41,735 nt of DNA from a virus: the UHGV virus genome UHGV-1359735; one strand, given 5' to 3'. This document shows, piece by piece, positions 5,999 to 20,050 of this stretch. The position numbers were made by a program, and so were the translations under genes. How positions within the stretch are numbered: the first letter of the stretch is position 1; the number at the start of each line of letters is the position of its first letter. The notes below the pieces were generated by a model. The model was not told the origin of the DNA, searched no databases, and saw nothing but the letters and a program-made list of their open reading frames with translations.

Positions 5999-7021
5999 AT
6001 GTCTACCAACGCACTTAAGGCAGCTGCGACAGGAAACCAGGTCGCGCAGCATAGCGATAAACCAACCACTCTGGCTGGCTTGCTCGCAGATCCAAAAATT
6101 AAGGCTCAGATGGCGCTGGCTCTTCCAAAGCACATGACAGCCGACCGCCTTGCGCGCATCGCTACTACAGAGATCCGCAAGATCCCAAAACTGGCGGCCT
6201 GTGACCAGGCCAGCTTCCTCGGGGCGATTATGCAATGTGCTCAACTCGGTCTTGAGCCAGGCGGCGCACTTGGCCATGCATACCTGATTCCGTTCGACAA
6301 ACGGCAGAAAGTAAATGGCCGCTGGGAAACTGTATCGACAGAAGCGCAGCTGATTATTGGTTATCGGGGAATGATTGACCTCGCCCGCCGGTCAGGTCAA
6401 ATCCTGAGCATATCAGCGCGCACAGTCCATGCGAACGACAAATTCAGTTACTCATACGGGCTGGAAGAAACGCTCGAGCATTCACCTTGCGAGACCGGTG
6501 ACCGAGGAGAACTTACGCATGTTTACGCCGTTGCACGCCTGAAAGATGGCGGTGTTCAGTTCGAAGTTATGAGCCGGGCAGACGTTGAGAAAGTTCGTGC
6601 CCTGAGCAAAGCCGGAAGCAGCGGACCGTGGGTGGACCACTTTGACGAGATGGCCAAAAAGACGGTGATCCGTCGCCTGTTTAAATACCTGCCTGTTTCT
6701 ATCGAACTGCAAAAAGCGGTTGTGATGGATGAACGAGCTGAAGCCGGCCTGAGCCAGGATAACGCAGCTGTTATCACCGGTGAGTATTCCGTCGTAGACG
6801 ATGAGCAGCAGAGCATGACAGCAGTTTCTGAATCTGATCGAGAAGAAGCACGTGAATACGCTAGCGCCATTCTGAACAACCTTGATCCTTCTGTGGATGA
6901 TGCAAAGGCGCTTTTTAAGCGGGCAGAAGACGAAATAAACGCACTGGCTGAAAAGTTAGGCGATGAATACCACCAGGGATTCATGACGACGCTTAACGAT
7001 ATGCGTCCTGAATTTGCATAA
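5999..7021 (+). CDS. recT: RecT-family ssDNA annealing recombinase
   Basis: 340 aa; RecT motifs (GYRGMIDLARRSG, acidic C-terminal tail); AAGGAG SD. Confidence 0.9.
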   Translation: MSTNALKAAATGNQVAQHSDKPTTLAGLLADPKIKAQMALALPKHMTADRLARIATTEIRKIPKLAACDQASFLGAIMQCAQLGLEPGGALGHAYLIPFDKRQKVNGRWETVSTEAQLIIGYRGMIDLARRSGQILSISARTVHANDKFSYSYGLEETLEHSPCETGDRGELTHVYAVARLKDGGVQFEVMSRADVEKVRALSKAGSSGPWVDHFDEMAKKTVIRRLFKYLPVSIELQKAVVMDERAEAGLSQDNAAVITGEYSVVDDEQQSMTAVSESDREEAREYASAILNNLDPSVDDAKALFKRAEDEINALAEKLGDEYHQGFMTTLNDMRPEFA

Positions 7022-7071
7022 CACCACCACCGCGGCGCGCCCGGCGCCGCACTGAAAAAAGAGAGGTAACG

Positions 7072-7320
7072 ATGAAAGGTGCATTAGGCAAAAAGGAACT
7101 GCTGGCGGTGGTGCCTGTATCGATGAGCACTATCGACCGCATGGAGAAAAACGGGGAGTTCCCGAAGCGTTTCTGGATCACAGACAAGCGCTGTGCCTGG
7201 AACAGCGAAGAGATCGAGCGCTGGCTGGATGAACGTCAGCAGAACGGCACAACGGAGTTTGCTGGAAAAAAGCCTCCGGTTGAGCAGCGAGTATTTCGCC
7301 CGGTTGGTAACGCGGCGTGA
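7072..7320 (+). CDS. AlpA-family HTH regulator / excisionase-like
   Basis: 82 aa; LLAVVPVSMSTIDRMEKNGEFPKRFWITDKRCAW matches the AlpA/MerR-like phage excisionase family; GAGAGG SD. Confidence 0.7.
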   Translation: MKGALGKKELLAVVPVSMSTIDRMEKNGEFPKRFWITDKRCAWNSEEIERWLDERQQNGTTEFAGKKPPVEQRVFRPVGNAA

Positions 7321-7429
7321 CGTCGCTGGCGAGGTACTGGGAAAGGTGGTCAGGATGGTTTCTGTACCTGGCCGCCGTATCCGCCTGGCTGTTCCTGCTG
7401 GCGGTCATTTTTCGAGAGGGTTGGATACG

Positions 7430-7723
7430 ATGAATCGGATGGAAAAATACCACGCGGATTATGTCTCTCAGCGCAAAGCGCCCCCTCTTGTCGCCGTAAC
7501 GCCGGCGGCAATGGAGATCGAGCAGCGCGCTATTGCTCGCGAGAACAAAGGCCAGTACCGCCTGGCCGCTCGCCTCTGGCTTGAGTGCATGGATGCGGCC
7601 ACTGGCGAGGTTGAGCGGGCCCGTATCGCTATACGCCGAGATCAGTGCATTGGCCGCGGGAACCGGCTTCGCCAGGGATGCTATGCCGGGATCTGCGCCA
7701 CAGCCGGGGTGATTTATGACTAA
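7430..7723 (+). CDS. PerC-like transcriptional activator (98 aa)
   Basis: ATG 7430 after GAGAGGG SD; motif A.RE..G.YRLAARLWLECM resembles PerC/ANR family proteins common in enterobacterial prophages. Confidence 0.45.
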   Translation: MNRMEKYHADYVSQRKAPPLVAVTPAAMEIEQRAIARENKGQYRLAARLWLECMDAATGEVERARIAIRRDQCIGRGNRLRQGCYAGICATAGVIYD

Positions 7724-7874
7724 CCCACACGACAGCATTCGCGTAGGCAGTATCACGCTGGTTTATTCGTCCGTGCGCCGTGGCTGGCTGGCGCCCGGCG
7801 GCCAGGTTATCCAGAACCCGCTGAAGGCTCAGCGCCTGGCGGAGCAACTGAATAGCAAGAAGGTGGCAGCATGA
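7716..7874 (+). CDS. Small ORF (52 aa), translationally coupled
   Basis: Not in track. ATG 7716 after GGGGTGA; start overlaps PerC-like stop and stop overlaps ASCH start (ATGA). Confidence 0.3.
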   Translation: MTNPHDSIRVGSITLVYSSVRRGWLAPGGQVIQNPLKAQRLAEQLNSKKVAA

Positions 7875-8530
7875 AAGAACGCGGGATGATTTTTAACGGG
7901 GAGATGGTGCGGGCATTGTTGGATGGCCGAAAGACGCAGACGCGCAGGATTATAAAGGACTGCACGGTCGGAAGAGACCAAATTTCAAAATTCATTCAGA
8001 TCGAGAAGAAGTTTATCGGCTGCTACCCGGAAGATGTACCTGAACTGATCAGGGAATGCTGCCCATACGGAATACCAGGCGATCGCATCTGGGTGCGGGA
8101 GGCCTTTCGGGTGCATAGCCGGGCTACAGACGTCGCCACCCTGTTATACAAAGCCAGCGAGCGAAATTCATGGACTGAGCAAACCCACCGTGTACCCGTA
8201 GCTGTCTGCAATAAGCCGGCAACGCCTGAGAAATGGACTCCTTCGCTGCACATGCCGCGCTGGGCCAGCCGCATTCTGCTGGAAATCACCAACGTGCGGG
8301 TGGAGCGGCTGAACGCTATCAGCGAAGAGGACGCGCGAGCAGAAGGAATTATTGACGGTGGCTGCCTTAATTGCGGGGAGCCTGAGCCATGCGGATGCGC
8401 TAATCCAGAGCCTGACGCTACCGATGCTTTTGCCTACCTGTGGCAATCTATCTACGGGCAGGAAAACTGGAATGCCAACCCCTGGGTTTGGGTTATCGAG
8501 TTCAAGCGCGTTGAAGGTGGTGCGGCATGA
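7871..8530 (+). CDS. ASCH/PUA-like domain protein
   Basis: N-terminal MIFNGEMVRALLDGRKTQTRR...GDRIWVRE pattern (GxKxxTRR) typical of ASCH-domain proteins; AGGTGG SD; ATGA-coupled to the downstream methylase. Confidence 0.5.
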   Translation: MKERGMIFNGEMVRALLDGRKTQTRRIIKDCTVGRDQISKFIQIEKKFIGCYPEDVPELIRECCPYGIPGDRIWVREAFRVHSRATDVATLLYKASERNSWTEQTHRVPVAVCNKPATPEKWTPSLHMPRWASRILLEITNVRVERLNAISEEDARAEGIIDGGCLNCGEPEPCGCANPEPDATDAFAYLWQSIYGQENWNANPWVWVIEFKRVEGGAA

Positions 8531-9120
8531 GCGGAAAATACACCCTGATTTATAGCGATCCGCCATGGGCATACCGCGACAAGGCAGCCGACGGTGACCG
8601 CGGCGCCGGTTTCAAATACCCGGTGATGAATGTGCTGGATATCTGCAGGCTGCCTGTGTGGGAACTGGCTGCCGACGATTGCCTTCTGGCTATGTGGTGG
8701 GTACCGACTCAGCCGGTAGAGGCGCTGAAAGTCATGGAGGCCTGGGGATTCCGTCTGATGACCATGAAGGGATTCACCTGGCACAAGACGAACAAGCACA
8801 AAGGGAACAGTGCGATCGGCATGGGCCATATGACCCGGGCGAACAGCGAAGACTGCCTGTTTGCGGTGCGCGGGAAACTACCGGCCCGCATGGACGCCTC
8901 GATCTGCCAGCATGTCACGGCGCCGCGCCTGGAGAACTCGCGCAAACCAGACGTTATCCGCGAGAAACTGGTGCAGCTGCTTGGCGATGTCCCACGAATT
9001 GAGCTCTTCGCACGCCAGTCGTCTCACGGTTTCGACGTGTGGGGGAATCAGTGCACGGCGCCGGCGGTTGAGTTGCTGCCAGGCTGCGCTGTGCCGGTAG
9101 TGAAGACGGAGGCCGCATGA
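8527..9120 (+). CDS. MT-A70 family DNA N6-adenine methyltransferase
   Basis: DPPW catalytic motif (LIYSDPPWAY); size and architecture of phage Dam-like MT-A70 enzymes. Confidence 0.85.
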   Translation: MSGKYTLIYSDPPWAYRDKAADGDRGAGFKYPVMNVLDICRLPVWELAADDCLLAMWWVPTQPVEALKVMEAWGFRLMTMKGFTWHKTNKHKGNSAIGMGHMTRANSEDCLFAVRGKLPARMDASICQHVTAPRLENSRKPDVIREKLVQLLGDVPRIELFARQSSHGFDVWGNQCTAPAVELLPGCAVPVVKTEAA

Positions 9121-9308
9121 ACATTGCCGAAGAGGCCTCACTGATACGACAACTCGAAGAGGCGCGCGCCATTATCAACCAGAGGAATGGTGAGATCATT
9201 CACCTGCAGCGAGAAGCGGCGCGCTACCGTGAGCAGCGGGATTCTGCAAATGCGATGGTTAAGTTCCTGCGCGGACTCTTTGAGAATTCTTCGAAGGCGA
9301 CACAATGA
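9117..9308 (+). CDS. Small coiled-coil protein (63 aa)
   Basis: ATGA overlap with the methylase stop; GACGGAGG SD; helical, charged sequence. Confidence 0.45.
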   Translation: MNIAEEASLIRQLEEARAIINQRNGEIIHLQREAARYREQRDSANAMVKFLRGLFENSSKATQ

Positions 9309-9324
9309 GCCGCCTCAGGGCGGG

Positions 9325-10575
9325 CTATTGTTCATTCATCCACTTTTCAAATGCAGACGGGGAGAACGGCACCAGGTCGTAATGCTCCCCGTTTATCCAT
9401 GCATCAACCATATTTGCCCACTGCTGCAGCATGTAGGCCCGCTGCCTGGAATACTCGGCTTTGTTGTAAACCGCCCTCACGCCCTTCTGTTCATGCGCCA
9501 GCGCCTTCTCTATCCAGTCTGACGGGAATCCCGCTTCATGCAAAAGCGTGCTCGCTGTGCGCCGCAGGTCGTGCACCGTGAGAGGTTGAAGGCTCTCCCC
9601 GGCATCCGCTGCCGCAGCAACCGCGCGATCGATGACTGAGTTCAGAGCGGCATTGGATAACGGCTTACTGGTGCTGTAGCGCCCGGGCAGAAGATAGTCA
9701 CTCCCGCCTGCGCACATCTGGAGGCCTACCATCAGATCCTGCGCCTGAGGCGGAAGGTAGATGACGTGCGACCGGCTCCCCTTCATCCTGTCAGATGGGA
9801 TCGTCCAGGTTCCTTTGCTGAAATCGACCTCTTTCCACGTCGCCATGATGAACTCGGTTTTGCGCACCATCGTGATCAGGATGAGCTTCACAGCCAGTTT
9901 TAAGGTTGGCAACGTGCTGACGGTGTCGAGCGACCTGAACAGCACGCCGATTTCTTCCGGCTGCAGGCAACGGTCACGCGGTTTAAACATGGCGATCGCT
10001 GAAGGTTTGATATCTGCGGCAGGGTTGAATAACCCATGCCCGCGGTCATTGGCGTACCGATACACGCTGCTAATTATTTCACGCGCCTGCACCGCCGTCG
10101 CACGTCCGCCGCGCTCGACTATGCGATCGCAAAGATCACGCACCATAGGGGTCGTTATCTCGGACATCATTTTGTTTCCGAGAACAGGCAAAATATCCCG
10201 GTCGATTACTGATTGCTTCATAGACCGCGTGCTGTCGGCCAGGACCACATGTTTCATGTAGGCGTCGGTATGTACCGTAAATGTTTCGGCGCCGCGGATC
10301 CGTTTGATACCGTCACGCTTCGCCGCAGCCGGCGACTGGCCTGCGTTCAGCAGCTTTTTAGCGGCTATCAGTTGATCCCTGGCTTCAGCCAGCGTGATAC
10401 CGTCACGACCATACTGACCGATAACCAGCGTCTCCCGGCGGCCGTTGATGCGGTAATCGTAACGAAACGAGATGGTACCTGAGATCAGCACGGCTACATA
10501 CAGCCCGTCACGATCGGAGACCTTGTACATTTTGCCCTGCGGTTTCAGGTTTTTTAGTTTGGTATCGGTAAGCAC
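9325..10575 (-). CDS. int: Tyrosine integrase (P4-type, N-terminal arm-binding DUF4102-like domain)
   Basis: N-terminus MLTDTKLKNLKPQGKMYKVSDRDGLYVAV typical of P4-like integrases; C-terminal catalytic HDLRRTASTLL...Y; GTG start with GGGTGA SD. Confidence 0.9.
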   Translation of the reverse strand: MLTDTKLKNLKPQGKMYKVSDRDGLYVAVLISGTISFRYDYRINGRRETLVIGQYGRDGITLAEARDQLIAAKKLLNAGQSPAAAKRDGIKRIRGAETFTVHTDAYMKHVVLADSTRSMKQSVIDRDILPVLGNKMMSEITTPMVRDLCDRIVERGGRATAVQAREIISSVYRYANDRGHGLFNPAADIKPSAIAMFKPRDRCLQPEEIGVLFRSLDTVSTLPTLKLAVKLILITMVRKTEFIMATWKEVDFSKGTWTIPSDRMKGSRSHVIYLPPQAQDLMVGLQMCAGGSDYLLPGRYSTSKPLSNAALNSVIDRAVAAAADAGESLQPLTVHDLRRTASTLLHEAGFPSDWIEKALAHEQKGVRAVYNKAEYSRQRAYMLQQWANMVDAWINGEHYDLVPFSPSAFEKWMNEQ

Positions 10576-10599
10576 AGTTCACCCGTGATGCATCATTTT

Positions 10600-10890
10600 T
10601 CTGACGGTACGAGAGTATACCGTAATGGTAATACCGTCAGGTATACCGTCAAAAAATGTGAGATAGAGTGAATAGTGTTGAAGTGATATAAAGAAAAACC
10701 CTCTGTAAAAACAGAGGGTTGCATTTCAATTTGAGTAGATATGATTAGCTATAAGGTAGCCGTTAATCATTCCCACTCAATTATTTACAGCACTCGTAAC
10801 CAATTGACTGAAAACAAGTTTATGAAACGATAAATTCTGCGTACCGTTTTATATACCGTCACCGGGGAACAGTACCATGAAAAATACCAT
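10600..10890. other. attP-like region: arm-type direct repeats flanking a central hairpin
   Basis: TATACCGT/ATACCGTC x3 at 10616-10650; GTACCGT and TATACCGTC at 10841-10860; GTACCATG/ATACCATG at 10872-10892; central hairpin AACCCTCTGtaaaaaCAGAGGGTT at 10697-10720; immediately 5' of int. Confidence 0.55.
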
Positions 10891-10891
10891 G

Positions 10892-11374
10892 CTACCTGGT
10901 TAGTTCATCGTACTGTCTTTCGCAGACCCTTCCGGCTTCAGCTGCCCGGTCAGCGTATTCTGCCAGTTGCCGGTTTCGTTCAAGAGATTTTTCGAGCACG
11001 TCGGCAAGCAAAACTCCGGTGTCTGCGGCTGACGACCCAGCGCCGACAGTGGCGTTATACTGCCTGAGCTGCTCACGGATGGCAACGAGCTGCTGCTGCA
11101 GCCGGCCAGCGCGAGCGGCAGCATCAAGAGCATCATTGCGCGCCTGGTCGATCCTCTGCTGCGCTTCACGTTCATTGGTTGCTTTCTCCTGTTCGTCATG
11201 TTGACGGGCTTTCTCATCTTCCGCTTTGCGGTCTGCCTTCGCCTGCGCATACCCGGCGTCGTACTGTCTGTCACCGTGAATATTCCAGGCTACAATGCCG
11301 CCGGCCACCAGAGCAGCAAGCATCGACACGATAAGCAGCTGTTTCCAGTACGCTTTCACGAATGCCGTGATCAT
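10892..11374 (-). CDS. Rz: Rz-like i-spanin
   Basis: Start ATG 11374 (ATGA overlap with endolysin stop); N-terminal TM (LLIVSMLAALVAGGIVAW) then long charged coiled-coil; last lysis gene. Confidence 0.7.
   Translation of the reverse strand: MITAFVKAYWKQLLIVSMLAALVAGGIVAWNIHGDRQYDAGYAQAKADRKAEDEKARQHDEQEKATNEREAQQRIDQARNDALDAAARAGRLQQQLVAIREQLRQYNATVGAGSSAADTGVLLADVLEKSLERNRQLAEYADRAAEAGRVCERQYDELTR
10900..11136 (-). CDS. Rz1: Rz1-like o-spanin lipoprotein embedded in the +1 frame of Rz
   Basis: MMLLMLPLALAGC lipobox signal peptide; Pro/Ser-rich mature part; entirely nested inside Rz. Confidence 0.65.
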   Translation of the reverse strand: MMLLMLPLALAGCSSSSLPSVSSSGSITPLSALGRQPQTPEFCLPTCSKNLLNETGNWQNTLTGQLKPEGSAKDSTMN

Positions 11375-12000
11375 GATGCCAGTACCTTCTTGGCCGACAG
11401 GTAACGCACACGGCGATCGTCGATGCCATTCTGCCCGCCGTTGATGATCTGCGTGACGCGCATCAGGTCGTCGGTGTACTTCAGGCATCCATATTTCACG
11501 AAGTACCACGCCGCGCTCCGCGCTGCATACTCGTCCTGCGCCAGCAGCTCCGGATGCTTAACCAGATCCACCTTCAAGCCGTTGCCGCAGTCGCGATAGG
11601 TGTTCAGCCCGGTGATCTGGATAAGCCCGCGCCCGCGGTAAAACCAGCCGTCTGTCGGCCCGTTATTCCCCATGCGTTTGCTGTATACCAGATTGGCTAT
11701 GGCTCGCTGCCTCTCCAGTGGCAACGATGGTTCACCCTGCCGGCGCCCTAGGGAATTAGCCTGGCCCTGCGTCAGCCGCCCGGCACGGACGAAACCAGCC
11801 AGCCCCGCCACGCTGTAATTGAAGTTCTCAACGAGCTGGGTAAGGCCAGTGCTTTCATGCCCGGCCTGGGCAATAAACATCGCCTGATCCAACGGCTTGA
11901 TAATGCCAAACTGTTTCATGGCCGCCACGATGTGCGGATGCCAGCGTGTGGCCAGCGCCAGGCTAACGCCGGCTGCTTTCTGAAACTCGTTAATGTCCAT
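11371..12000 (-). CDS. Endolysin, glycoside hydrolase family 19 (chitinase-like lysozyme)
   Basis: GH19 catalytic motifs (AQAGHESTGL ... YRGRGLIQITG..NY); located between holin-like and spanin genes. Confidence 0.85.
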   Translation of the reverse strand: MDINEFQKAAGVSLALATRWHPHIVAAMKQFGIIKPLDQAMFIAQAGHESTGLTQLVENFNYSVAGLAGFVRAGRLTQGQANSLGRRQGEPSLPLERQRAIANLVYSKRMGNNGPTDGWFYRGRGLIQITGLNTYRDCGNGLKVDLVKHPELLAQDEYAARSAAWYFVKYGCLKYTDDLMRVTQIINGGQNGIDDRRVRYLSAKKVLAS

Positions 12001-12295
12001 GTTGCGACCTCGATATCTTGAAGATTTGCACGACGTTGCCGCGCGTCTTCAGCACCGCGGCGAACATCACAGCGTTGATAACGACCTCAGAAAGATCTGC
12101 GGTCATAGGGAAGTGGTACAGGTATGAGTACGCGGTGCGCAGCGGGATGCTGGCCGCCGCCACGATGAGGAAATAGGCTATCCACCCGCCCCAGCGGCGA
12201 TGGCGCGATCCGTTGCGCTGGAAGAACATTACCCGCAGCGCTATCCCGCCGCAGATGATGCTATTAGCGATAAGCAGCAGATCATGGCCTGTCAT
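11990..12295 (-). CDS. Holin-like membrane protein (101 aa)
   Basis: 2-3 predicted TM helices, charged C-terminus; immediately upstream of the endolysin, overlapping it. Confidence 0.55.
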   Translation of the reverse strand: MTGHDLLLIANSIICGGIALRVMFFQRNGSRHRRWGGWIAYFLIVAAASIPLRTAYSYLYHFPMTADLSEVVINAVMFAAVLKTRGNVVQIFKISRSQHGH

Positions 12296-12695
12296 CGTCT
12301 TTTCCTCCCGGGATTAAATCGCACGGATTGTCAGAGCGGTGATACAGCCATATCCCGACCCGCACCGCGACAATTGCCGCAACGAACGCGCCGGCGGAGT
12401 AGACAATACCCCGCTCGAACGAGTCCTGTGTGATGGTGGGGATCATGCTGGCAACGCCGATAAGGATTGATGCTGTGGGTTTGTAGAAGAGAAGGCCGCA
12501 GAGAAAGCTAAGTAGCGCAAGGAGAACGCGGCGCTTGACCGGATACTCAACTGCAGAGGTAACAAAAATTACCGCCCCTGCCAGGGAGCCAAGCGCCACC
12601 TCGGGAGGGACGCCAGCGATAACTGCCGCCAGCGCGCCATAGCTAAGCCCCTGATTTATTATGTCAGCGGTTAGCGATGCAGACATGGTGACCAC
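12282..12695 (-). CDS. Membrane protein (137 aa), possible holin/antiholin partner
   Basis: About 4 TM segments; first gene of the lysis cassette; possible dual start MVTM. Confidence 0.45.
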   Translation of the reverse strand: MVTMSASLTADIINQGLSYGALAAVIAGVPPEVALGSLAGAVIFVTSAVEYPVKRRVLLALLSFLCGLLFYKPTASILIGVASMIPTITQDSFERGIVYSAGAFVAAIVAVRVGIWLYHRSDNPCDLIPGGKDDDRP

Positions 12696-12765
12696 CGTTT
12701 ATTATGCATGATGTACCTCCTATAGTTGGTAAGTACATCATACACAATAATCCTAATACGAATAA

Positions 12766-14106
12766 ATGGTAATAGTAGATACCATCACCATGTCAACCAT
12801 GAACTATTTTGAATTCATCTGGTCAATTGAACATTGCAAACCGAAATTAAGAAAAGAGATGAACAGAAGAGAAGCGGTTTTAGTAACCGGAAAATCTATA
12901 TTATCTATATACTTAAGCTCTTTGATATGGCCGATAAAATCCTTCGCATCGCAGTCTGGCATTCTTAACGTTGCTGACTTTGGAGCAACAGGAGACGGAA
13001 TAACAGACGATTCTTATGCTTTTCAAAAGGCATTTATTAAGGCAAGTGAATCAGGTGGTGCGAAAGTTTACTTTCCGAAACCCAAAAAAGAATATTTGCT
13101 GAAGTTCCCGGTATTTATCTTTAACAATACCGAAGCATATGGCGACGGTAAAGATACGCGAATTGTTTTCGAGAATCCGGTGTTCAGTAAGGGCCGCGGA
13201 GGGTTCGTTATAGGTTCAAGCCTGGAGGCAAACAGAGATCTGGCGCTAACAAGGTTCAGTAACCGTTCATTGTCCACGACGATCAACCAGAACTTCAAGA
13301 ATCCAGTCCAACGGCACTACATACGTGATACGCCAGAGTTGGCCCAGGCGAAAGGAAGTAGCCTACACGATATCTATCTGGAGGCGAGATTCACTGCTGG
13401 CTCAGAAAGCAACTGGGGCGGGTACGGCATTAATTTCGTAAACGCCATTGACTGTCATGCTAGCAACATATGGGGGAAAGGGTGGACGCAGCTTATTGGA
13501 ATGGGCTCTGACACTCCGCCAGAAACACCATCAAACCATAATTGCAGCGCAAAGAATTTGTATGTTCTTGAGCCTGATATGGTCAGGACATATTACTCAA
13601 TAGGGTTCATGGCTAACTCAAGTAATTGTACTATTCAGAATGCAAAACAACTTAAGGCCATGACTGCTGGAAGTAAGAACGGCAGTGGTGTTGCGTTGAA
13701 CTTTTGCGAGGATTGTATTGTTGCAGATATAGATATACCAGACCTGGGAAGAACTCAAACATCAGAGGGGGTTCTTATAAATAATTCGTCTGGTTGTTTG
13801 ATTCAGAACATAAACATCGGCAATGCGAAAAAAGCCGTGTCAACATTCTTTAAATTCAAAGACACTCAAAAGGAATTTAAACCTAATATGATTAAGAATG
13901 TATTGGGTTCAAATTGCGACATTGTATTGTCTGTATACTCCAAATTTAACATCATAAGAAACATCAAGGGTGATAATTCTGGACGAGTTATAGCCTTGAT
14001 GAATACTAATGCAGCGAGAAATGTTATAAGTGCTCCTGAGGCGGATATCTCCACCCCAGGGAAAGCACCGATTACTACATTAATGAAGCTTAATAAAATC
14101 GAGTAA
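12766..14106 (+). CDS. Secreted/anchored right-handed beta-helix protein (pectate-lyase-3-like glycan hydrolase or lyase)
   Basis: NVADFGATGDGITDDSYAFQKAF hallmark of the pectate_lyase_3 / tailspike-like beta-helix. N-terminal hydrophobic signal/anchor (MNRREAVLVTGKSILSIYLSSLIWPIKSFAS). Low GC. Start uncertain: all candidate ATGs have weak SD. Confidence 0.6.
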   Translation: MVIVDTITMSTMNYFEFIWSIEHCKPKLRKEMNRREAVLVTGKSILSIYLSSLIWPIKSFASQSGILNVADFGATGDGITDDSYAFQKAFIKASESGGAKVYFPKPKKEYLLKFPVFIFNNTEAYGDGKDTRIVFENPVFSKGRGGFVIGSSLEANRDLALTRFSNRSLSTTINQNFKNPVQRHYIRDTPELAQAKGSSLHDIYLEARFTAGSESNWGGYGINFVNAIDCHASNIWGKGWTQLIGMGSDTPPETPSNHNCSAKNLYVLEPDMVRTYYSIGFMANSSNCTIQNAKQLKAMTAGSKNGSGVALNFCEDCIVADIDIPDLGRTQTSEGVLINNSSGCLIQNINIGNAKKAVSTFFKFKDTQKEFKPNMIKNVLGSNCDIVLSVYSKFNIIRNIKGDNSGRVIALMNTNAARNVISAPEADISTPGKAPITTLMKLNKIE

Positions 14107-15339
14107 TCATTCTATAGCGCGATGGCGACCATCATCGTCATCGCGCTGACTGTTAACTGCAACAAAGAAGATTAGTGCAGGAATACTAATCCAGAACGTA
14201 GATATATCAACAAACATCCCTGATGCTATAAACGCAAGGAGAAGCGGAAGACTTTCTGAATTGTTCTTGTAAACGCAGTAGCACAGAGACACAAGCATCC
14301 CCACGTACAAAGCTAAACCAATAATGCCTGTTTCCAGCAATGATGATATGAACACGTTATCAGGCACGATGCCGTACTTATCAGTAGCCATGCGATAACC
14401 AACGCCAAATATTGGATTTTCCCCAAGAATATCAGGAACTGAGGCCCAGGTAGCAAGTCGGCCAGACGTGATATCAATCTGTCCAGATCCGGTAATCCTA
14501 TCCAGCAAGGCAATGATATAATCATTACTAATTCCGTAAGTGATAACACCAGCGCCGATAGCTGCGAAAAACAGCATCTTGAATACGCTAAGGCTTCTTG
14601 TTCTTATTAAATCAAAGAATACATATACAGCCAGCGCAAAAACCAAAGTTCGCGTAAGTGAAATATAGATGTTAAACACAAGGCCAAGCAGTATCAAAAT
14701 GTAAAGTATTTTGCTTTTGCTGGTATGGCGAAGACCAATAAGCGATGCCACGCCAAGAATCAATGCAAGACTACCATACGCACTGGAATCATTAGCGACA
14801 CCACCTGCCCTGTAAATGTAACCCATTCCAGGATAGCTAAACCTTTGCTTCGCAACAAGGATGTCCATTTGCATGAACCAACCCCAAGCCGCCTCTATGG
14901 TAACGACAAAGAAAAGGAAAATGAAAAAACGATAGACGGTTTTCCTTTGCTCTTCAGAAAGCTTATTAATAAACGCGAAAACTAAAAGCGCTGGAAAGTA
15001 CATTTCAAGAAGTCTGACATATCGAAGAAATGATGACTCATGATCTGCCAGTTTATCGTAGGTTAGATAGCTATACGCTATACCTGCCACGATCCATGAC
15101 GCCCACAAAAAGAACATAAATAAAACAGATAATTTCTTTTTATCTATTGTTTTTCTTGTCATTGCAAAAACAGCAAATGAAATAATAATAAATGGAATCG
15201 CTGGCTCTAGCCCAGATATACTACCACGACCAAAAGGCACTAGCGTTATTATTGCAAGTGCAAATAGATATAGCCTAATGGCAATATCATCATATTTAAA
15301 TTTACTTCTCAATGTGTGTAGCCCTCTTAAGCGCCACAA
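14107..15339 (-). CDS. Wzy_C / O-antigen ligase-family polytopic membrane protein (putative O-antigen polymerase)
   Basis: About 10-12 TM helices; periplasmic-loop motif RITGSGQIDITSGRLATW typical of Wzy/WaaL family; low GC. Confidence 0.7.
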   Translation of the reverse strand: MWRLRGLHTLRSKFKYDDIAIRLYLFALAIITLVPFGRGSISGLEPAIPFIIISFAVFAMTRKTIDKKKLSVLFMFFLWASWIVAGIAYSYLTYDKLADHESSFLRYVRLLEMYFPALLVFAFINKLSEEQRKTVYRFFIFLFFVVTIEAAWGWFMQMDILVAKQRFSYPGMGYIYRAGGVANDSSAYGSLALILGVASLIGLRHTSKSKILYILILLGLVFNIYISLTRTLVFALAVYVFFDLIRTRSLSVFKMLFFAAIGAGVITYGISNDYIIALLDRITGSGQIDITSGRLATWASVPDILGENPIFGVGYRMATDKYGIVPDNVFISSLLETGIIGLALYVGMLVSLCYCVYKNNSESLPLLLAFIASGMFVDISTFWISIPALIFFVAVNSQRDDDDGRHRAIE

Positions 15340-15470
15340 AAATTAAAACATATTATTATATGTGGCAAATTATCAAGGGAAAGACAAATCACATTCAGTA
15401 GAAAAGTAACGCGATCTGCCTCACCCCAATTTATACTTAGTCGGCAACTATATCACATAAGAATAATCCG

Positions 15471-15737
15471 TCAATTTTCTGACATTGCGCTATCATCCTC
15501 GGCACCCTCGTAAAAAGGTAGTGATTTTAGATAGGCATAAGCCTGTTCGGTTGGCGACAAACTGTTTTGATTATAAGCACATCCGTGCGTTTCACCGTCC
15601 AGAGGAAGTGAGGATTTATCTGCTTTCATCGAAACAAAAAAATCCAACTGGTTGCCTTGTATGGTGATCTGCTCGACAGTGAAAACTGCATTCTCAACAG
15701 TCAACCCCTTAAATGTAGTGGTCTTTATAAGCGACAT
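15471..15737 (-). CDS. Hypothetical protein (88 aa) downstream of tailspike
   Basis: ORF immediately following the tailspike stop; low GC; possible tailspike accessory protein. Confidence 0.4.
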   Translation of the reverse strand: MSLIKTTTFKGLTVENAVFTVEQITIQGNQLDFFVSMKADKSSLPLDGETHGCAYNQNSLSPTEQAYAYLKSLPFYEGAEDDSAMSEN

Positions 15738-15738
15738 T

Positions 15739-18069
15739 TTAAGCTCCTATGTAAGTTGCACCAGCAACAGGATATTCAATGGATATGCGTATATCAGTCG
15801 TGTCTCTTACAACAGAACCATCCATAGGCTGCCCACCTAAAAACAGATTCAATGTCGTTCCTGACGTGACACTGCAAGTAACAGGCAAGGTTCTATTCGG
15901 TATGTTTAATGTAGAGGTTACAGTTTTAGAGTTATCCTCATCCAATACGCCATGGATTTCGTACGTCTGGTTACCAAGAAGAACCTGGCAATGAACGCCA
16001 GACCCACTGCGCTGGCCAGGAGCAATTGCTATTGGGAGGCTTATAGATAGGTTTCCTGCAGGCTGTGTAGTAATGGATCCTATCGTCATCCATAGAGACA
16101 ATTTGCAATTGTCATTGCTGATCTCATAGTTCCCACCCCTTGTTGAATAGGTAATGACCCCAGCGGTGGCTGATCCTGTTAATGACGGATTAAAAGTGCC
16201 GGCTCTTGCCCCTATCATCGGCTTATTTGTTGAATCGTATGTTACTTCATCAACAGAACCAGTAGACTGATTTCTATTATCATAAGCATGTGATCTTGCA
16301 CATGTTCCTGAGAAATGAATTGCTCTTCCTGCAACTGAACAAGTCACTTTGTTATTTTCTGCATGAAGTCCAAAAAGGCCACGCATTTTAATGGCATAGT
16401 TTTGTTTTGAAGAAACCACATAACAGTTTTTTACAGAAATACTATGAGCAGTGTTTTGGCTGGTAATAAGGAATCCCGCATAGTCCCATCCAAGGGTGCC
16501 AGGGAGATCATATCCAATCAGTACACCAGCTTCCGTATTCGCACTGCCAGTACTACCATTACCGTTATTATAGAAATAACATCCTTCTATGGTTCCTCCA
16601 TGAGCTGGGTTTATTACAGTAGAGCCAGCATCGGCATTTGTACCTGAAGCAATACCTATACCCCAGGCTCCATTTTCAGAGTGTTCGATATTGGCACCAG
16701 TAACAGAGAAGCCAGCAGGGTTGCATAACATTAAATTGCCAACCCAGCCATGATGGTAAGTTCCACCAACAATAGAGATTCCAGTATGGTCATTAGTGTA
16801 ACCAATGCGACATGGAGTCTCTCCACCAAAGTACTCGCCTCCAATAATACTGCATCCCCACGCTCTTTTAGACCCTAACCACAGGCCATAACGCGCTCTC
16901 AATGGCTTCCCACTTCCATCAGTTGCAGTTGTATCCCCAGCCCAGAAGTCACAACTAATCACAAAACTGTTGTAACAACGAGGCACTTTTATAAGTGCGT
17001 CTGGGTAATATGTCGTCCCGACATATCTTACTTTTAAATCCTTTAAAATTATTCTCCTTGTTCTTTCCCCTGCTGCTTCCCTGGATAGAACTATCTGACC
17101 GCCATTCATTAATAATATCCCGTTAATAATATTAACGTTAATATCTAAATTATGGCTTTCATAAAGAGTATATTGCTTACCCCTAAGATCAATTGTGTAA
17201 GGTAACGAAGTTCCGAGAAGTGTGTCTGGCAACGACTCAAGATATGAAAACATTAATGACCAAAGCTGATCATCTGTAGGCTCTGCTATTCCCACACCAA
17301 ACATTTCAGGATATACAATTCTCCCCAAAGACAACATTTCCTGAACATTTAATCCATTTTCTGTTCCAACAAGCGATGCGCCGGCCGTGCTAGCAAGTTT
17401 GATGGCAAGGTCTGCTGTGTCGGTTTGACCAGCAATGGCTACTGGATTTCCAAGATCATTAAAGCCAAGGAGCATGTTCGAGCGAACATTTACCGGAGGA
17501 ACAATTCCCACATCAGACTCTGGAACTCGTAGTGACCTTCTGAATAATTTATCTGTGTAAGAATTAGAACTGTCCAGAATGCTGTCAGCATAATTTTTTG
17601 TAGCGGCATCCTGTGACTGTGATGGGTCACGCAGGTTACGAATGCGATTATTCAGTGCATCGTAGTAGTTCGCCAGCCATGATGGTTTCCTGAGTGATAG
17701 TCCAGACCACCAACCATAGGCCTGTTGCACCAGCATAGTCAGCTTATCGAAAGCATCTTCGTGGATCTCAGGAAAGAAGCCCCCCTGGTTCCTGATGCTG
17801 GCTTCCTGCGTAACCGGCGTGCTGCGCTCGATAGAGATTTTGTAGCCAGCTGGCAGCGCTGATGTCAGAACCACCTTCCCCCCGTTGTAACGGTTCACGC
17901 CGGTAACCGTGTAGTCGGTACCGAGTGTTAGCGTCACGATGTTTTCGGAGGTATCCAGGGTCTGCACCAGCAGGTGGCTTTTATCCAGGATGCGGAACGT
18001 GAAATCGTATTGGGTAGTGGCGCCGTTCCCGGTGTACTCGTTACGGCTTACCTGCGTTGAAACTGTCAT
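15739..18069 (-). CDS. Tailspike / tail fiber with T7 gp17-like N-terminal adaptor and beta-helix depolymerase body
   Basis: N-terminus MTVSTQVSRNEYTGNGATTQYDFTFRI is the conserved podovirus tail-fiber N-terminal domain; the remaining ~620 aa look like a beta-helix depolymerase; GC drops sharply at ~17600-17650 (module swap). Confidence 0.85.
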   Translation of the reverse strand: MTVSTQVSRNEYTGNGATTQYDFTFRILDKSHLLVQTLDTSENIVTLTLGTDYTVTGVNRYNGGKVVLTSALPAGYKISIERSTPVTQEASIRNQGGFFPEIHEDAFDKLTMLVQQAYGWWSGLSLRKPSWLANYYDALNNRIRNLRDPSQSQDAATKNYADSILDSSNSYTDKLFRRSLRVPESDVGIVPPVNVRSNMLLGFNDLGNPVAIAGQTDTADLAIKLASTAGASLVGTENGLNVQEMLSLGRIVYPEMFGVGIAEPTDDQLWSLMFSYLESLPDTLLGTSLPYTIDLRGKQYTLYESHNLDINVNIINGILLMNGGQIVLSREAAGERTRRIILKDLKVRYVGTTYYPDALIKVPRCYNSFVISCDFWAGDTTATDGSGKPLRARYGLWLGSKRAWGCSIIGGEYFGGETPCRIGYTNDHTGISIVGGTYHHGWVGNLMLCNPAGFSVTGANIEHSENGAWGIGIASGTNADAGSTVINPAHGGTIEGCYFYNNGNGSTGSANTEAGVLIGYDLPGTLGWDYAGFLITSQNTAHSISVKNCYVVSSKQNYAIKMRGLFGLHAENNKVTCSVAGRAIHFSGTCARSHAYDNRNQSTGSVDEVTYDSTNKPMIGARAGTFNPSLTGSATAGVITYSTRGGNYEISNDNCKLSLWMTIGSITTQPAGNLSISLPIAIAPGQRSGSGVHCQVLLGNQTYEIHGVLDEDNSKTVTSTLNIPNRTLPVTCSVTSGTTLNLFLGGQPMDGSVVRDTTDIRISIEYPVAGATYIGA

Positions 18070-18167
18070 AGTCTGCTCCAGTGGTCAGCGCTGGCGCGCG
18101 TGAATAGAAGCATTCTATTACCCATCAAACCATATATGAATAAAACAGATCGAAACGAGCAAAAACA

Positions 18168-18182
18168 TTACCATTAAGGTAA
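18168..18182. promoter_or_regulatory. Operator-like palindrome TTACCattaaGGTAA in the divergent tailspike / Ant-C-paralog region
   Basis: Perfect copy of the dispersed motif; a half-site lies at 18207-18211. Confidence 0.55.
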
Positions 18183-18256
18183 ATAAAAACCTTCTGGAAA
18201 ACCCTGTTACCTTTTGATATATGTATATATATACAGTATTTATCGGAGTAATCCTA

Positions 18257-18517
18257 ATGCCAGAGCGGTACCAGTATCCTGTCGACGAAGGTTTTGCGGA
18301 TCGTATTCACACCCCGGAAGGGGTCAGATCCCTGGTTGTAAAATCACAGCTGATGGAGTTGCTCAGGGAGATGGAGCGAGACGGCCACGATGTCAGCGGT
18401 GCGGCGGCGGAACTGGTGGCACTGGTTAACTATGTGACAAGCTCGCAGCTGTCGATGCGGGAGCTGCAAACACACCTGGATTTCTGCGCAATGCAGATTA
18501 GACAACATTTAAAGTAA
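18257..18517 (+). CDS. Small protein homologous to the C-terminal domain of the Ant antirepressor (86 aa)
   Basis: ATG 18257 after GGAG SD; about 50% identity to the C-terminal ~75 aa of the 20051..20740 product (IH.P.G.R.L..S.M.LLRE...DGHDVSGAAAE). Preceded by an operator and a LexA-like box. Confidence 0.5.
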   Translation: MPERYQYPVDEGFADRIHTPEGVRSLVVKSQLMELLREMERDGHDVSGAAAELVALVNYVTSSQLSMRELQTHLDFCAMQIRQHLK

Positions 18518-18582
18518 GTTATAAGCTACTCGTCTACATGCTATACTTATATGAAGACGAGTTGCTAATAAACGGTGGTAAA

Positions 18583-18738
18583 ATGAATGTGTTTTTAAAA
18601 AAAGAGTCTAATTCTTTAACTTCCACTGTAAAAATGCTAATAGTGGCAATTGTTACATATCAGATCGGGATAGGATGGGGGCTAATATGCATTGCTACTA
18701 TAAATGTGCTCCCATCCATAACAATAAAATTTAATTAA
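18583..18738 (+). CDS. Small membrane peptide (51 aa)
   Basis: ATG 18583 after GGTGG SD; one TM helix (MLIVAIVTYQIGIGWGLICIATI); 3' end overlaps the convergent 283-aa gene by 8 nt; AT-rich. Confidence 0.3.
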   Translation: MNVFLKKESNSLTSTVKMLIVAIVTYQIGIGWGLICIATINVLPSITIKFN

Positions 18739-19582
18739 GTTTTACACTCATTTGCCCAACATAATTAAACGGGTTTGATTTATCTATTCTTCTTAATGAC
18801 ATGGCAGAAGAAAAGTTCACAAAAGTACTAAATCCGTAGGTTGCTGAAGCTAAAATAGCACCTGTTTCTGGAAGACCTATTGATTTGGCGCCAAAATACG
18901 CTGCACCTGCATTTGTTACTATCTCAGGAATATTGAAGTTAAATTTTACTTCTGATAAGTTAAATTTTATACGGCTTTCACCATACAATCTAATAACATC
19001 TGCGCAAGCTTTATCTATCTCATTTATTGCCACCTTAAGTTCTAAGTCTCTGTTTTGCGAATTTAATACTCTTGTGTTAAGTTCATTAATTTTATTCATG
19101 AGGTTTTCTAGTTCCCCCTTTCTTTTAAGCCTGAACTCCAATATATCATGGATGTTTACACTTTCATCAGGCTCTGGAATTGCATTTATCAAAGTAAATA
19201 ACTCACCATTATCCGGAGCAACCTCATTGCTATTCTTAATCAATACTTTATCAGCCTCACTAGCAATAAAATTTATATCTTTTCGCGCAAGTGAATCAAT
19301 CATAAATTTCATATTTGCGTCATATAATAGCGTAGCAAAATCACCACTGCCATTGATACGTAACATTACCTCAGTAAATAACCCTTCCCTTTTAAGTTCT
19401 GGTATACCTGGGGTTTCGTCATTAGAGATATTAATTAAATTGTTGTTTGTTGTAATTATTTTATCCCAATAAAGAGCATTTATTAATAACTTCCTATAGT
19501 TTAAATTAGATTCTGCTATATGTATGCTATTATTATCTGCGTTAATAAACATATCAGGAAACATTAAAACATGATTTTCCAT
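18731..19582 (-). CDS. Hypothetical 283-aa protein, very AT-rich moron (candidate defense/exclusion gene)
   Basis: Long clean ORF with Asn/Ile/Lys-rich composition; GC about 30% versus the ~52% backbone; isolated between tailspike and ant. Confidence 0.5.
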   Translation of the reverse strand: MENHVLMFPDMFINADNNSIHIAESNLNYRKLLINALYWDKIITTNNNLINISNDETPGIPELKREGLFTEVMLRINGSGDFATLLYDANMKFMIDSLARKDINFIASEADKVLIKNSNEVAPDNGELFTLINAIPEPDESVNIHDILEFRLKRKGELENLMNKINELNTRVLNSQNRDLELKVAINEIDKACADVIRLYGESRIKFNLSEVKFNFNIPEIVTNAGAAYFGAKSIGLPETGAILASATYGFSTFVNFSSAMSLRRIDKSNPFNYVGQMSVKLN

Positions 19583-19768
19583 TTAATCACCCATAGTATG
19601 TGTAGTAATAAAAATAATTTATGTAACTTTATTGGTTAGAATCACATTGGTAAATATCAACACCAAAAAATATACTAGAACTATGTTTAGGATTGTTCTA
19701 TATGCACATAAAAAAAAGCGCAAAACAACTCATAAAGAGATTGATTTTACTTAATAAACAAAATAAGA

Positions 19769-19783
19769 TTACCAAAATGGTAA
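19769..19783. promoter_or_regulatory. Operator-like palindrome TTACCaaaatGGTAA plus promoter upstream of ant
   Basis: TTGATT(19741-19746)-17bp-TAAGAT(19764-19769) promoter directly abutting the perfect palindrome. Confidence 0.55.
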
Positions 19784-19874
19784 ATTTACAACCCATTTCC
19801 CTTGTGCCATAGTGATCAGGCATCGGCAAAATCCGGTGCCGGGATTGGCGTCCCGGATAACTAAACGGCGCACA

Positions 19875-19898
19875 ACACGCGCACTGCGTGTTTTTTTG
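19875..19898 (+). terminator. Intrinsic terminator in the ant leader
   Basis: ACACGC-gcact-GCGTGT stem-loop followed by TTTTTTT, about 100 nt downstream of the ant promoter/operator and ~150 nt before the ant start. Confidence 0.55.
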
Positions 19899-20050
19899 TG
19901 CACGCGCTCTGACGCACCTATCCAATGGTGGGCTGGGCGGGGGTCCGAAAGGACGCCGGTATCCGTTTAGGCCGGTACGCCAACTCCGTTCAGTTCACCA
20001 CCAGTAATTGGCGTTGCGGTGGTGATAACTCTACTAAGCGGGGTATCACA

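Follow-up and report, generated by a model that had tools for sequence, protein, structure and literature searches.

A candidate surface-glycan conversion module travelling with a tailspike receptor-binding body in an epsilon15-like Klebsiella phage

Why should a temperate phage carry a polysaccharide polymerase gene and a beta-helix glycanase gene between its lysis genes and its tailspike gene? The question is raised by positions 12,766 to 18,069 of UHGV-1359735, a virus genome of 41,735 nucleotides (nt) referred to hereafter, at its full length, as the window, in which a previous reading of the letters alone (the sequence-only reading) had suspected lysogenic conversion of the surface polysaccharide. 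The answer favoured here, with a probability of about 0.6, is that positions 12969-17355 constitute a horizontally mobile receptor and conversion cassette in an epsilon15-like temperate phage of Klebsiella, the two enzymes of which would together remodel the surface polysaccharide of the lysogen. As judged from sequence comparison, the cassette would join the receptor-binding body of the tailspike, with an 88-residue open reading frame (ORF) trailing it, to a self-promoted accessory unit (moron) of two genes.

The beta-helix ORF matches Pfam family PF12708 (formerly Pectate_lyase_3; expectation value, E, 3.6e-12) and the tail-protein profile phrog_14442 (E 1.8e-143), the latter over profile positions 188-561 of 733 only, so that the protein has neither a virion adaptor nor a tailspike C-terminal domain; the sequence-only reading had likewise proposed a pectate-lyase-3-type protein with no virion adaptor. 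Translation likely begins at the ATG at 12859, giving 415 residues, because the purine-rich stretch AAGAAAAGAG precedes this codon and the resulting N-terminus aligns with that of 417-residue homologues; no purine-rich stretch was found before any of the three ATG codons upstream. An imperfect 26-nt hairpin, ATGGTAATAGTAGATACCATCACCAT, at 12766-12791 overlaps the earliest ATG codons of the ORF in its long form. It lies immediately upstream of the holin gene and was rated a terminator-like signal for the minus strand. The N-terminus reads MNRREAVL (an NRREAV motif), followed by a 14-residue uncharged stretch and then SFA/S, so that the signal can be written MNRREAVLVTGKSILSIYLSSLIWPIKSFA/SQ, after which the mature protein forms a right-handed beta-helix. 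The sequence-only reading had regarded this signal as an anchor; it is probably a cleavable twin-arginine (Tat) signal instead.

Homologues of the glycanase fall into two classes, namely stand-alone proteins of 412-440 residues from Klebsiella, Rahnella, and Pantoea (53-88% identity) and phage tail proteins of 546-780 residues (30-50% identity). A twin-arginine (RR) motif with the consensus RRxFL is present in 18 of the 19 full-length stand-alone homologues (the remaining one has KR), approximately 35-40 residues ahead of the start of the helix, whereas it is absent from all of the approximately 50 homologous phage tail proteins examined. The most conserved block of the stand-alone family, GMGSDxPPETPSNH, is retained in the window protein. 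That the beta-helix protein is a free enzyme bearing an export signal, and not a part of the virion, is thus supported by these comparisons; neither of the findings that the sequence-only reading had named as speaking against it, a missing signal peptide or a virion component, was encountered.

The AlphaFold2 model is a right-handed beta-helix (predicted local distance difference test, pLDDT, 89.3; predicted template-modelling score, pTM, 0.84). A Foldseek search with this model returned 152 matches in the PDB at E <=0.001, of which the 50 listed are almost all beta-helix enzymes or tailspikes, while sequence searches of the PDB with the single sequence and with a profile found only the N-terminal cap motif of the helix. 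The closest characterised relatives by sequence are Klebsiella capsule depolymerases at 41-47% identity, including those of KpV79 and ZX1 (41-42%), which are hydrolases of the K57 capsule; Dep_kpv79 cuts the beta-Gal-(1->3)-GalA bond of that polymer (PMC7693772). A hydrolase is therefore the better model than the lyase previously supposed, and by analogy with these homologous hydrolytic depolymerases (PMC7693772) the enzyme may cleave the polymer made by its own gene cluster. BLASTP revealed no similarity between the glycanase and the body of the tailspike encoded in the same window.

The convergent neighbour, which the sequence-only reading had placed at 14107-15339 as a Wzy_C-type membrane protein, proved to be one, with a match to PF04932 (Wzy_C) at residues 216-346 (E 3.6e-11) and, on a crude hydropathy plot, about 10 hydrophobic segments and a 67-residue loop at residues 262-328. 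It likely starts at the TTG at 15312, preceded by a conserved GAGGG, which gives 401 residues, the length also of Klebsiella aerogenes proteins that are 96-99% identical to it. Over 386 residues it is 44% identical to the Wzy_C gene products of two wza-wzb-wzc-wzx clusters, one in Rahnella (L009) and one in E. coli (L027), in each of which the gene is the only polymerase candidate; the phage copy is an orphan, having no wza-wzb-wzc-wzx locus of its own. A grouping with capsule or exopolysaccharide (EPS) polymerases is hence supported by homology, and not the grouping with transporters that would have told against the sequence-only reading. Among deposited phages in INPHARED, no close homologue of the polymerase was found, the sole match being a Halomonas phage protein at 29% identity, and an NCBIfam search gave only far sub-threshold matches. 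A profile search of genome contigs with the polymerase alignment, using narrow patterns, returned four Rahnella loci.

In both the Rahnella and the E. coli cluster, the gene that follows the polymerase candidate encodes a homologue of the beta-helix enzyme with the RR motif, and the gene order of the E. coli locus (wzi-wza-wzb-wzc-wbaP-wzx...gnd-manCB-ugd) is that of a capsule locus. The identities of polymerase and glycanase to the window proteins are 84/87% in Klebsiella oxytoca, 44/61% in Rahnella, and 44/57% in E. coli, a stepwise joint divergence that argues for inheritance as a pair. In the K. oxytoca chromosome (L004-L008) the pair forms an island of 36.9% guanine plus cytosine (GC) between dacD, which stands next to an orphan wzi, and sbcB (locus positions approximately 7000-11500), in the same convergent arrangement as in the window. 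This island is indexed in 940 blocks of the collection, with an IS1 insertion in one of the copies inspected (L005) and a frameshift in another (L006). Glycanase genes are not foreign to such loci, given that 33 glycosyl hydrolase genes and 6 "tail fiber" genes were annotated among 79 Klebsiella cps loci (PMC4616057). The genes in the capsule loci L009 and L027 are codirectional, whereas all mobile copies are convergent, from which an inversion in the origin of the mobile form is deduced. On this sequence evidence the pair is taken from Wzx/Wzy-dependent (group-1 type) capsule or EPS loci. A K type could not be assigned to the E. coli locus from similarity to K57 and K11 depolymerases, since the bacterial copies are all about equally distant from these (40-47%).

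The same pair has been captured by phages repeatedly. At least five different prophage backbones have it immediately behind the tailspike gene. Nucleotide identity amounts to about 90% when the backbone is epsilon15-like, siphovirus-like, or P22-like, and to about 84% for a decayed element (L020) and about 77% for a K. oxytoca prophage; in the P22-like prophages of K. aerogenes, the module is flanked by the tailspike gene on one side and by the integrase/attachment end on the other. Examples of lysogens are GCA_016614375.1, GCA_050599165.1, and GCA_047324765.1. The mobile copies have kept their coding sequence and promoter-like element intact, save the decayed one. The stop codons of glycanase and polymerase abut at 14104-14109 with neither spacer nor terminator, and likewise in all mobile copies. 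A literature search found no description of this module in Klebsiella, nor of the combination of a polymerase and a glycanase on a phage.

At its right edge, the two-gene module carries a sigma-70 promoter-like element, the best site of the promoter scan, with 10 of 12 matches plus the TG of an extended -10. The total number of sites in the scan was not above the shuffled expectation, and weight is given only to this conserved one. Both hexamers are conserved in every context that could be aligned across the element (epsilon15-like, P22-like, the siphovirus-like contig L016, K. oxytoca prophage, and K. oxytoca chromosome), while the sequence upstream of it differs; downstream, a conserved leader, GAGGG, and a TTG or GTG start follow in each. 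An Rfam scan of 12000-18500 gave nothing credible, and the leader matches no Rfam family. Of the marks of an accessory unit, the module thus has a promoter-like element at its edge and a GC content of 41% against 51-58%; no terminator was identified. On the glycanase side, a LexA-box-like palindrome, TACTGTTTTTATATACAGTA, is found about 150 nt upstream of the gene in other prophage loci (L010, at about 12600, and L011 and L016, at matching positions), and in the decayed element L020 a UmuC-like ORF diverges from the side of the palindrome. It is absent from the window, the region there being replaced.

The low-GC block seen by the sequence-only reading is real for 12766-17600, although its GC content was computed as 41.3% and not 35-40%; the whole window has 51.0%, the adjacent lysis genes 58.2%, the structural genes 53.9%, and the N-terminal part of the tailspike 53.1%. 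Its boundaries are supported by homology as well as composition, so the block is not a chance feature: similarity to the Klebsiella Uetakevirus relatives ends at 12772 and returns at 17584-17590, which bears out the view of it as foreign and mosaic. The swap junction does fall in the tailspike gene, as had been predicted, about 15-60 nt away from the predicted 17600-17650. In the window the order is holins (11990-12695), cassette, tailspike, whereas the tailspike gene stands directly beside the holin gene in all three relatives inspected; accordingly, about 12773-15737, with the gene pair and the ORF that follows the tailspike, is an insertion and the tailspike body (15739-17583) a replacement. 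A second junction near 17355-17382 marks the end of the block that the window has in common with another phage, the IMG/VR contig UViG_3300011644_000052 (L016), which matches the 4.39-kb cassette in a single alignment at 94.8% identity. The backbone of this contig is a different, siphovirus-like one with a 976-residue protein of tape-measure size. The left edge of the cassette, 12969, coincides with the boundary between the signal and the mature part of the glycanase.

The tailspike gene (15739-18069, minus strand) is itself a mosaic, and the T7-like N-terminus and C-terminal beta-helix body previously seen in it are both present. Residues 8-166 match PF03906 (T7 tail-fibre N-terminal domain), residues 1-240 are 54% identical in amino acids to epsilon15 gp20, and from 17584 onward the DNA is 94% identical to the Klebsiella Uetakevirus relatives. 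Residues 178-229 are 94% identical to those of tailspikes with a different N-terminus (L043-L045), and the neck segment is also common to GDSL-esterase tail fibres (P0188-P0195). The model of the body (pLDDT 87.6) finds tailspikes as its best Foldseek matches, Det7 gp208 being first (E 2.5e-13). Tailspike bodies that adjoin the module elsewhere are 41%, 55%, 96%, or 100% identical to that of the window, and the adaptors to which they are joined vary, T7-like and P22 head-binding domains being among them. Upstream of the module, this receptor-binding domain family occurs in seven of the eight IMG/VR loci with the module and in all genome-derived prophage loci. Two further prophage types carry the family without the module, and lytic phages of K. 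aerogenes and K. oxytoca carry it too; KA1-1 and PMBT12 are examples of lytic phages with it. The small ORF noted by the sequence-only reading is confirmed; it has no match in Pfam, PHROG, or NCBIfam. Its homologues (42-95% identity), one of them in the lytic Serratia phage IME250, follow the receptor-binding domain immediately, in loci that have the module and in loci that lack it, so that it belongs with the tailspike and not with the pair, and it may be a tailspike accessory or assembly protein.

Table 1. Positions in the window of the genes, protein parts and signals discussed
Feature	Position	Strand	Basis and remarks
Predicted Tat-signal beta-helix glycanase	12859..14106	+	PF12708, phrog_14442, AlphaFold2, RR motif; longest ORF from 12766
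Putative Wzy-family polysaccharide polymerase	14107..15312	-	PF04932; longest ORF to 15339
Conserved 5' leader, promoter to polymerase start, with Shine-Dalgarno GAGGG	15313..15446	-	Alignment, five genomic contexts
Sigma-70 promoter-like element TTGACG-16 nt-TGaTATAGT (extended -10)	15447..15474	-	Promoter scan and alignment; right edge of two-gene module
88-residue ORF	15471..15737	-	Homologues trail receptor-binding domain family
Tailspike receptor-binding body (residues 230-776), low-GC beta-helix and C-terminal domain	15739..17382	-	AlphaFold2, Foldseek
Tailspike neck/linker (residues 163-229)	17383..17583	-	Recurs on tailspikes with other N-termini
Tailspike N-terminal virion adaptor (residues 1-162)	17584..18069	-	PF03906; backbone GC 53%
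Mobile 4.39-kb cassette: mature glycanase, polymerase, 88-residue ORF, receptor-binding body	12969..17355		One blastn alignment, 94.8% identity

The sequence of the window identifies it as an epsilon15-type (Uetakevirus) temperate phage. Its integrase (9325-10575) and first holin-like protein are 82% and 83% identical in amino acids to the epsilon15 integrase and gp23, respectively, and the lysis genes match holin, GH19 endolysin, and spanin families in Pfam and PHROG. The nearest DNA relatives are the Klebsiella phages Kp4865-1 (96%), ST512-KPC3phi13.3, and BUCT711, all of which match only outside 12773-17583. A 100% identical tailspike and cassette are found in integrated copies within bacterial assemblies, where the spanin gene borders on host genes. 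Collinearity of the window with two such copies (L023, L024) extends from 12000 down to 10694 (the crossover being near 10694, within 10576-10891), beyond which it continues into the integrase gene and the copies into host MFS and LysR genes; it therefore has the unintegrated (attP) gene order and not that of the integrated prophage formerly assumed. The host is probably K. aerogenes, since the polymerases 96-99% identical to that of the window are almost all from this species. A second low-GC island (18500-20000, 34.6% GC) contains a gene for a DUF6236 protein (18731-19582, minus strand; PF19749, E 4e-18; phrog_23128) between the tailspike gene and a BRO-N anti-repressor gene, and the E. coli EC25 prophage (L003) has a protein of the same family at the corresponding place.

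Taken together, the epsilon15 slot, the module's own promoter-like element, its foreign composition, the repeated capture by prophages, and the association with one receptor-binding family are the reasons for reading the locus as one of lysogenic conversion. In the lysogen, the polymerase would be transcribed from its own sigma-70 promoter and would link the undecaprenyl-pyrophosphate repeat units made by the host in its own way. The glycanase, exported in the folded state via Tat, would cut polymer in the periplasm, where it could act either on the new polymer, shortening or releasing it in the way of WceF with stewartan, or on the resident one, removing it. The surface glycan would then no longer match the tailspike family that travels with the module, and in consequence the lysogen would be protected from superinfection and released virions would not be trapped on it. 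The converted glycan is probably Wzx/Wzy-dependent, a capsule being more likely than the O-antigen-type target presupposed by the sequence-only reading, because the pair comes from capsule or EPS loci. Trimming that blocks superinfection, as originally pictured, is one of two possibilities here, for enzymes of capsule and EPS loci act on the polymer of their own cluster: the chromosomal and capsule-locus copies favour the trimming of new polymer, whereas the position of the glycanase in place of gp22 makes the removal of old polymer worth testing.

A number of observations weigh against the conversion reading. No promoter was recognised for the glycanase gene in the scan of the window, where the region that precedes this gene in other loci is replaced. 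The allele of the signal peptide is a divergent one, having RREAVL and, within its hydrophobic region, a Lys, as follows from the cassette junction falling at the signal/mature boundary. The two genes run towards each other up to adjoining stop codons, with no intervening terminator, so that their transcripts would collide. Wzy usually has no part in the synthesis of Klebsiella O-antigens, and the substrate has for this reason to be presumed a capsule. The pair is also fixed in phage-free K. oxytoca chromosomes, and therefore has a role independent of phages; there the glycanase probably acts on the product of its partner and not on a phage receptor. Lastly, shared hosts could be all that lies behind the link to one receptor-binding family; the module is present in 7 of the 19 IMG/VR loci with this family, the other 12 being without it.

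The removal of old polymer can be taken further, tentatively and with the odds well against it, to a glycanase that is the enzymatic counterpart of the polymerase inhibitors epsilon15 gp22 and D3 Iap. Such an "eraser" would destroy the resident capsule or O-polymer, or the bonds between its units, in the periplasm while the phage polymerase builds a differently linked polymer, and receptor-binding domain, polymerase, and eraser would move as one specificity-matched cassette. If this were true, conversion would be complete without blocking of the host Wzy, and the module would represent a new mechanism of lysogenic conversion as well as the first capsule-type conversion by a phage in Klebsiella. 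About as improbable is the view that the pair masks no receptor and is a capsule/EPS accessory unit hitchhiking on phages to the benefit of the host, altering capsule amount, chain length, or biofilm, or lying idle. The phage-free occurrence of the same pair, fixed in K. oxytoca and embedded in the capsule clusters of Rahnella and E. coli, speaks for a passenger of this kind, as do the setting of EPS chain length by WceF-type enzymes (PMC7949094) and the 12 phage loci that have the receptor-binding family and not the module. Against it, the module in phages is always in the classical conversion slot after the tailspike, in at least five backbones, and almost always with one receptor-binding family; unrelated phages have it in common as a single block together with the receptor-binding domain, and its coding sequence and promoter-like element have not decayed outside L020.

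Different identities for the two proteins would also change the reading, and these are less probable still. PF04932 is named O-antigen ligase, the homologues bear the NCBI name "O-antigen ligase family protein", and NCBIfam yields a weak hit for the O-oligosaccharyltransferase TfpM (E 3e-7; 30 bits, the cut-off being 600), so that a WaaL- or PglL-like ligase could be envisaged, attaching glycan to lipid A-core or protein while the beta-helix enzyme prepares or trims that glycan. This is nevertheless quite unlikely, as the full-length 44% homologues are the only polymerase candidates of their two clusters, some K. aerogenes copies are named "polymerase", and the epsilon15 beta-polymerase gp21 is in the same Pfam family under the same generic name. 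For the beta-helix protein, a polymer-level epimerase or lyase, performing for example the C5-epimerisation of a uronic acid in the periplasm, is suggested by the top Foldseek matches (the mannuronan C5-epimerases AlgE4 and AlgE6 and an alginate epimerase/lyase, E about 1e-8) and by a Pfam family name that includes epimerases. At 12-14% identity and template-modelling scores (TM-scores) <0.5, these matches reflect the generic beta-helix only, and no catalytic residues can be transferred from them; the only characterised clear sequence homologues are the hydrolytic capsule depolymerases already described (PMC7693772), which makes such an enzyme very doubtful. Finally, the strong PHROG "tail protein" match and the name "phage tail protein" given to some homologues in NCBI and UniRef might point to a tailspike fragment that has decayed or been duplicated and would be either a pseudogene or another fibre of the virion. 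This identity was rejected as barely credible: the conserved length of the stand-alone family, the RR signal in 18 of 19 of its members, and the presence of the gene in non-phage capsule loci stand against it, as do a match covering the catalytic core and no adaptor domain, a location on the strand opposite to the late genes, and the dissimilarity to the tailspike of the phage itself.

The conversion reading would bear on the prediction of Klebsiella serotypes and on phage therapy. Whether a phage, depolymerase, antibody, or vaccine is effective against Klebsiella depends on capsule and O-antigen type, for the prediction of which only the chromosomal K and O loci are used. A pair of genes that hops between prophages and is also present in K. 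oxytoca chromosomes could alter the polymer without altering the typed locus, in the manner of prophage wzy genes in Acinetobacter. The pair is, in addition, a clean system in which to study the role of capsule-locus glycanases such as the WceF-type enzymes, and could reveal whether recognition of a receptor and its alteration are borne by phages as a single unit open to exchange.

Among known systems, epsilon15 itself is the nearest. Its seroconversion genes are those for the beta-polymerase gp21, the alpha-polymerase inhibitor gp22, and the transacetylase repressor gp28, and it has the same genus-level backbone (integrase, gp23, and tailspike N-terminus) and the same gene order, with gp21 and gp22 in the same slot between the tailspike gp20 and the holin gp23. 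Both phages carry a Wzy_C-family polymerase, and the gene adjoining the holin runs opposite to the late genes in each. The epsilon15-type seroconversion invoked by the sequence-only reading is supported in respect of the exact gp21/gp22 slot, the promoter-like element, and the recurrence after tailspikes, and not supported in respect of gp22 and gp28, for which tblastn against the window gave noise only (E >2) and no homologue. The place of the 66-residue membrane inhibitor gp22 is taken in the window by the 415-residue glycanase with its probable Tat signal. The polymerases are distant (27% identity over 210 residues, pairwise E 7e-8), a database-scale tblastn of all phages giving no match between them; the window polymerase points the other way, and the window pair derives from capsule or EPS loci rather than from an O-antigen source. 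P22 offers a likeness in position: its gtrABC genes lie between the tailspike gene and the integrase/attachment end, the very place of the module in the P22-like K. aerogenes prophages, although the chemistry is that of bactoprenol-glucose transferases instead of a polymerase and a glycanase.

Each half of the pair has its own precedent. Prophage wzy genes of Acinetobacter baumannii (K127; wzy1Ph and wzy2Ph with KL58) are reported to alter the linkage between capsule units, to move between prophages, and to convert the capsule (PMC9241936, PMC13228068). The genus is a different one, and the function of the window pair is deduced from homology; the abstract of PMC13228068 names no partner glycanase and has the resident Wzy suppressed, with no mechanism stated there. 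The glycanase half resembles WceF of Pantoea stewartii, a Tat-exported, tailspike-like EPS glycanase encoded in a Wzy-dependent EPS cluster, which hydrolyses the polymer of that cluster and the loss of which lengthens stewartan chains (PMC7949094). The two have in common the Tat signal and a right-handed beta-helix related to phage tailspikes, but WceF is a trimer of 736 residues per chain with extra N-terminal domains and is not borne by a phage, whereas the window protein consists of the helix only; WceF (6tgf) was absent from the PDB sequence searches (phmmer and profile) and from the top 50 Foldseek matches. The Klebsiella depolymerases, Dep_kpv79 for example, share the catalytic beta-helix (41-47% identity over approximately 360-390 residues) with its conserved GSDxPPxTPS block, yet these are virion tail proteins of 563-721 residues that have an adaptor at the N-terminus and a further domain at the C-terminus and lack a signal peptide, in contrast to the free glycanase with its export signal on the opposite strand.

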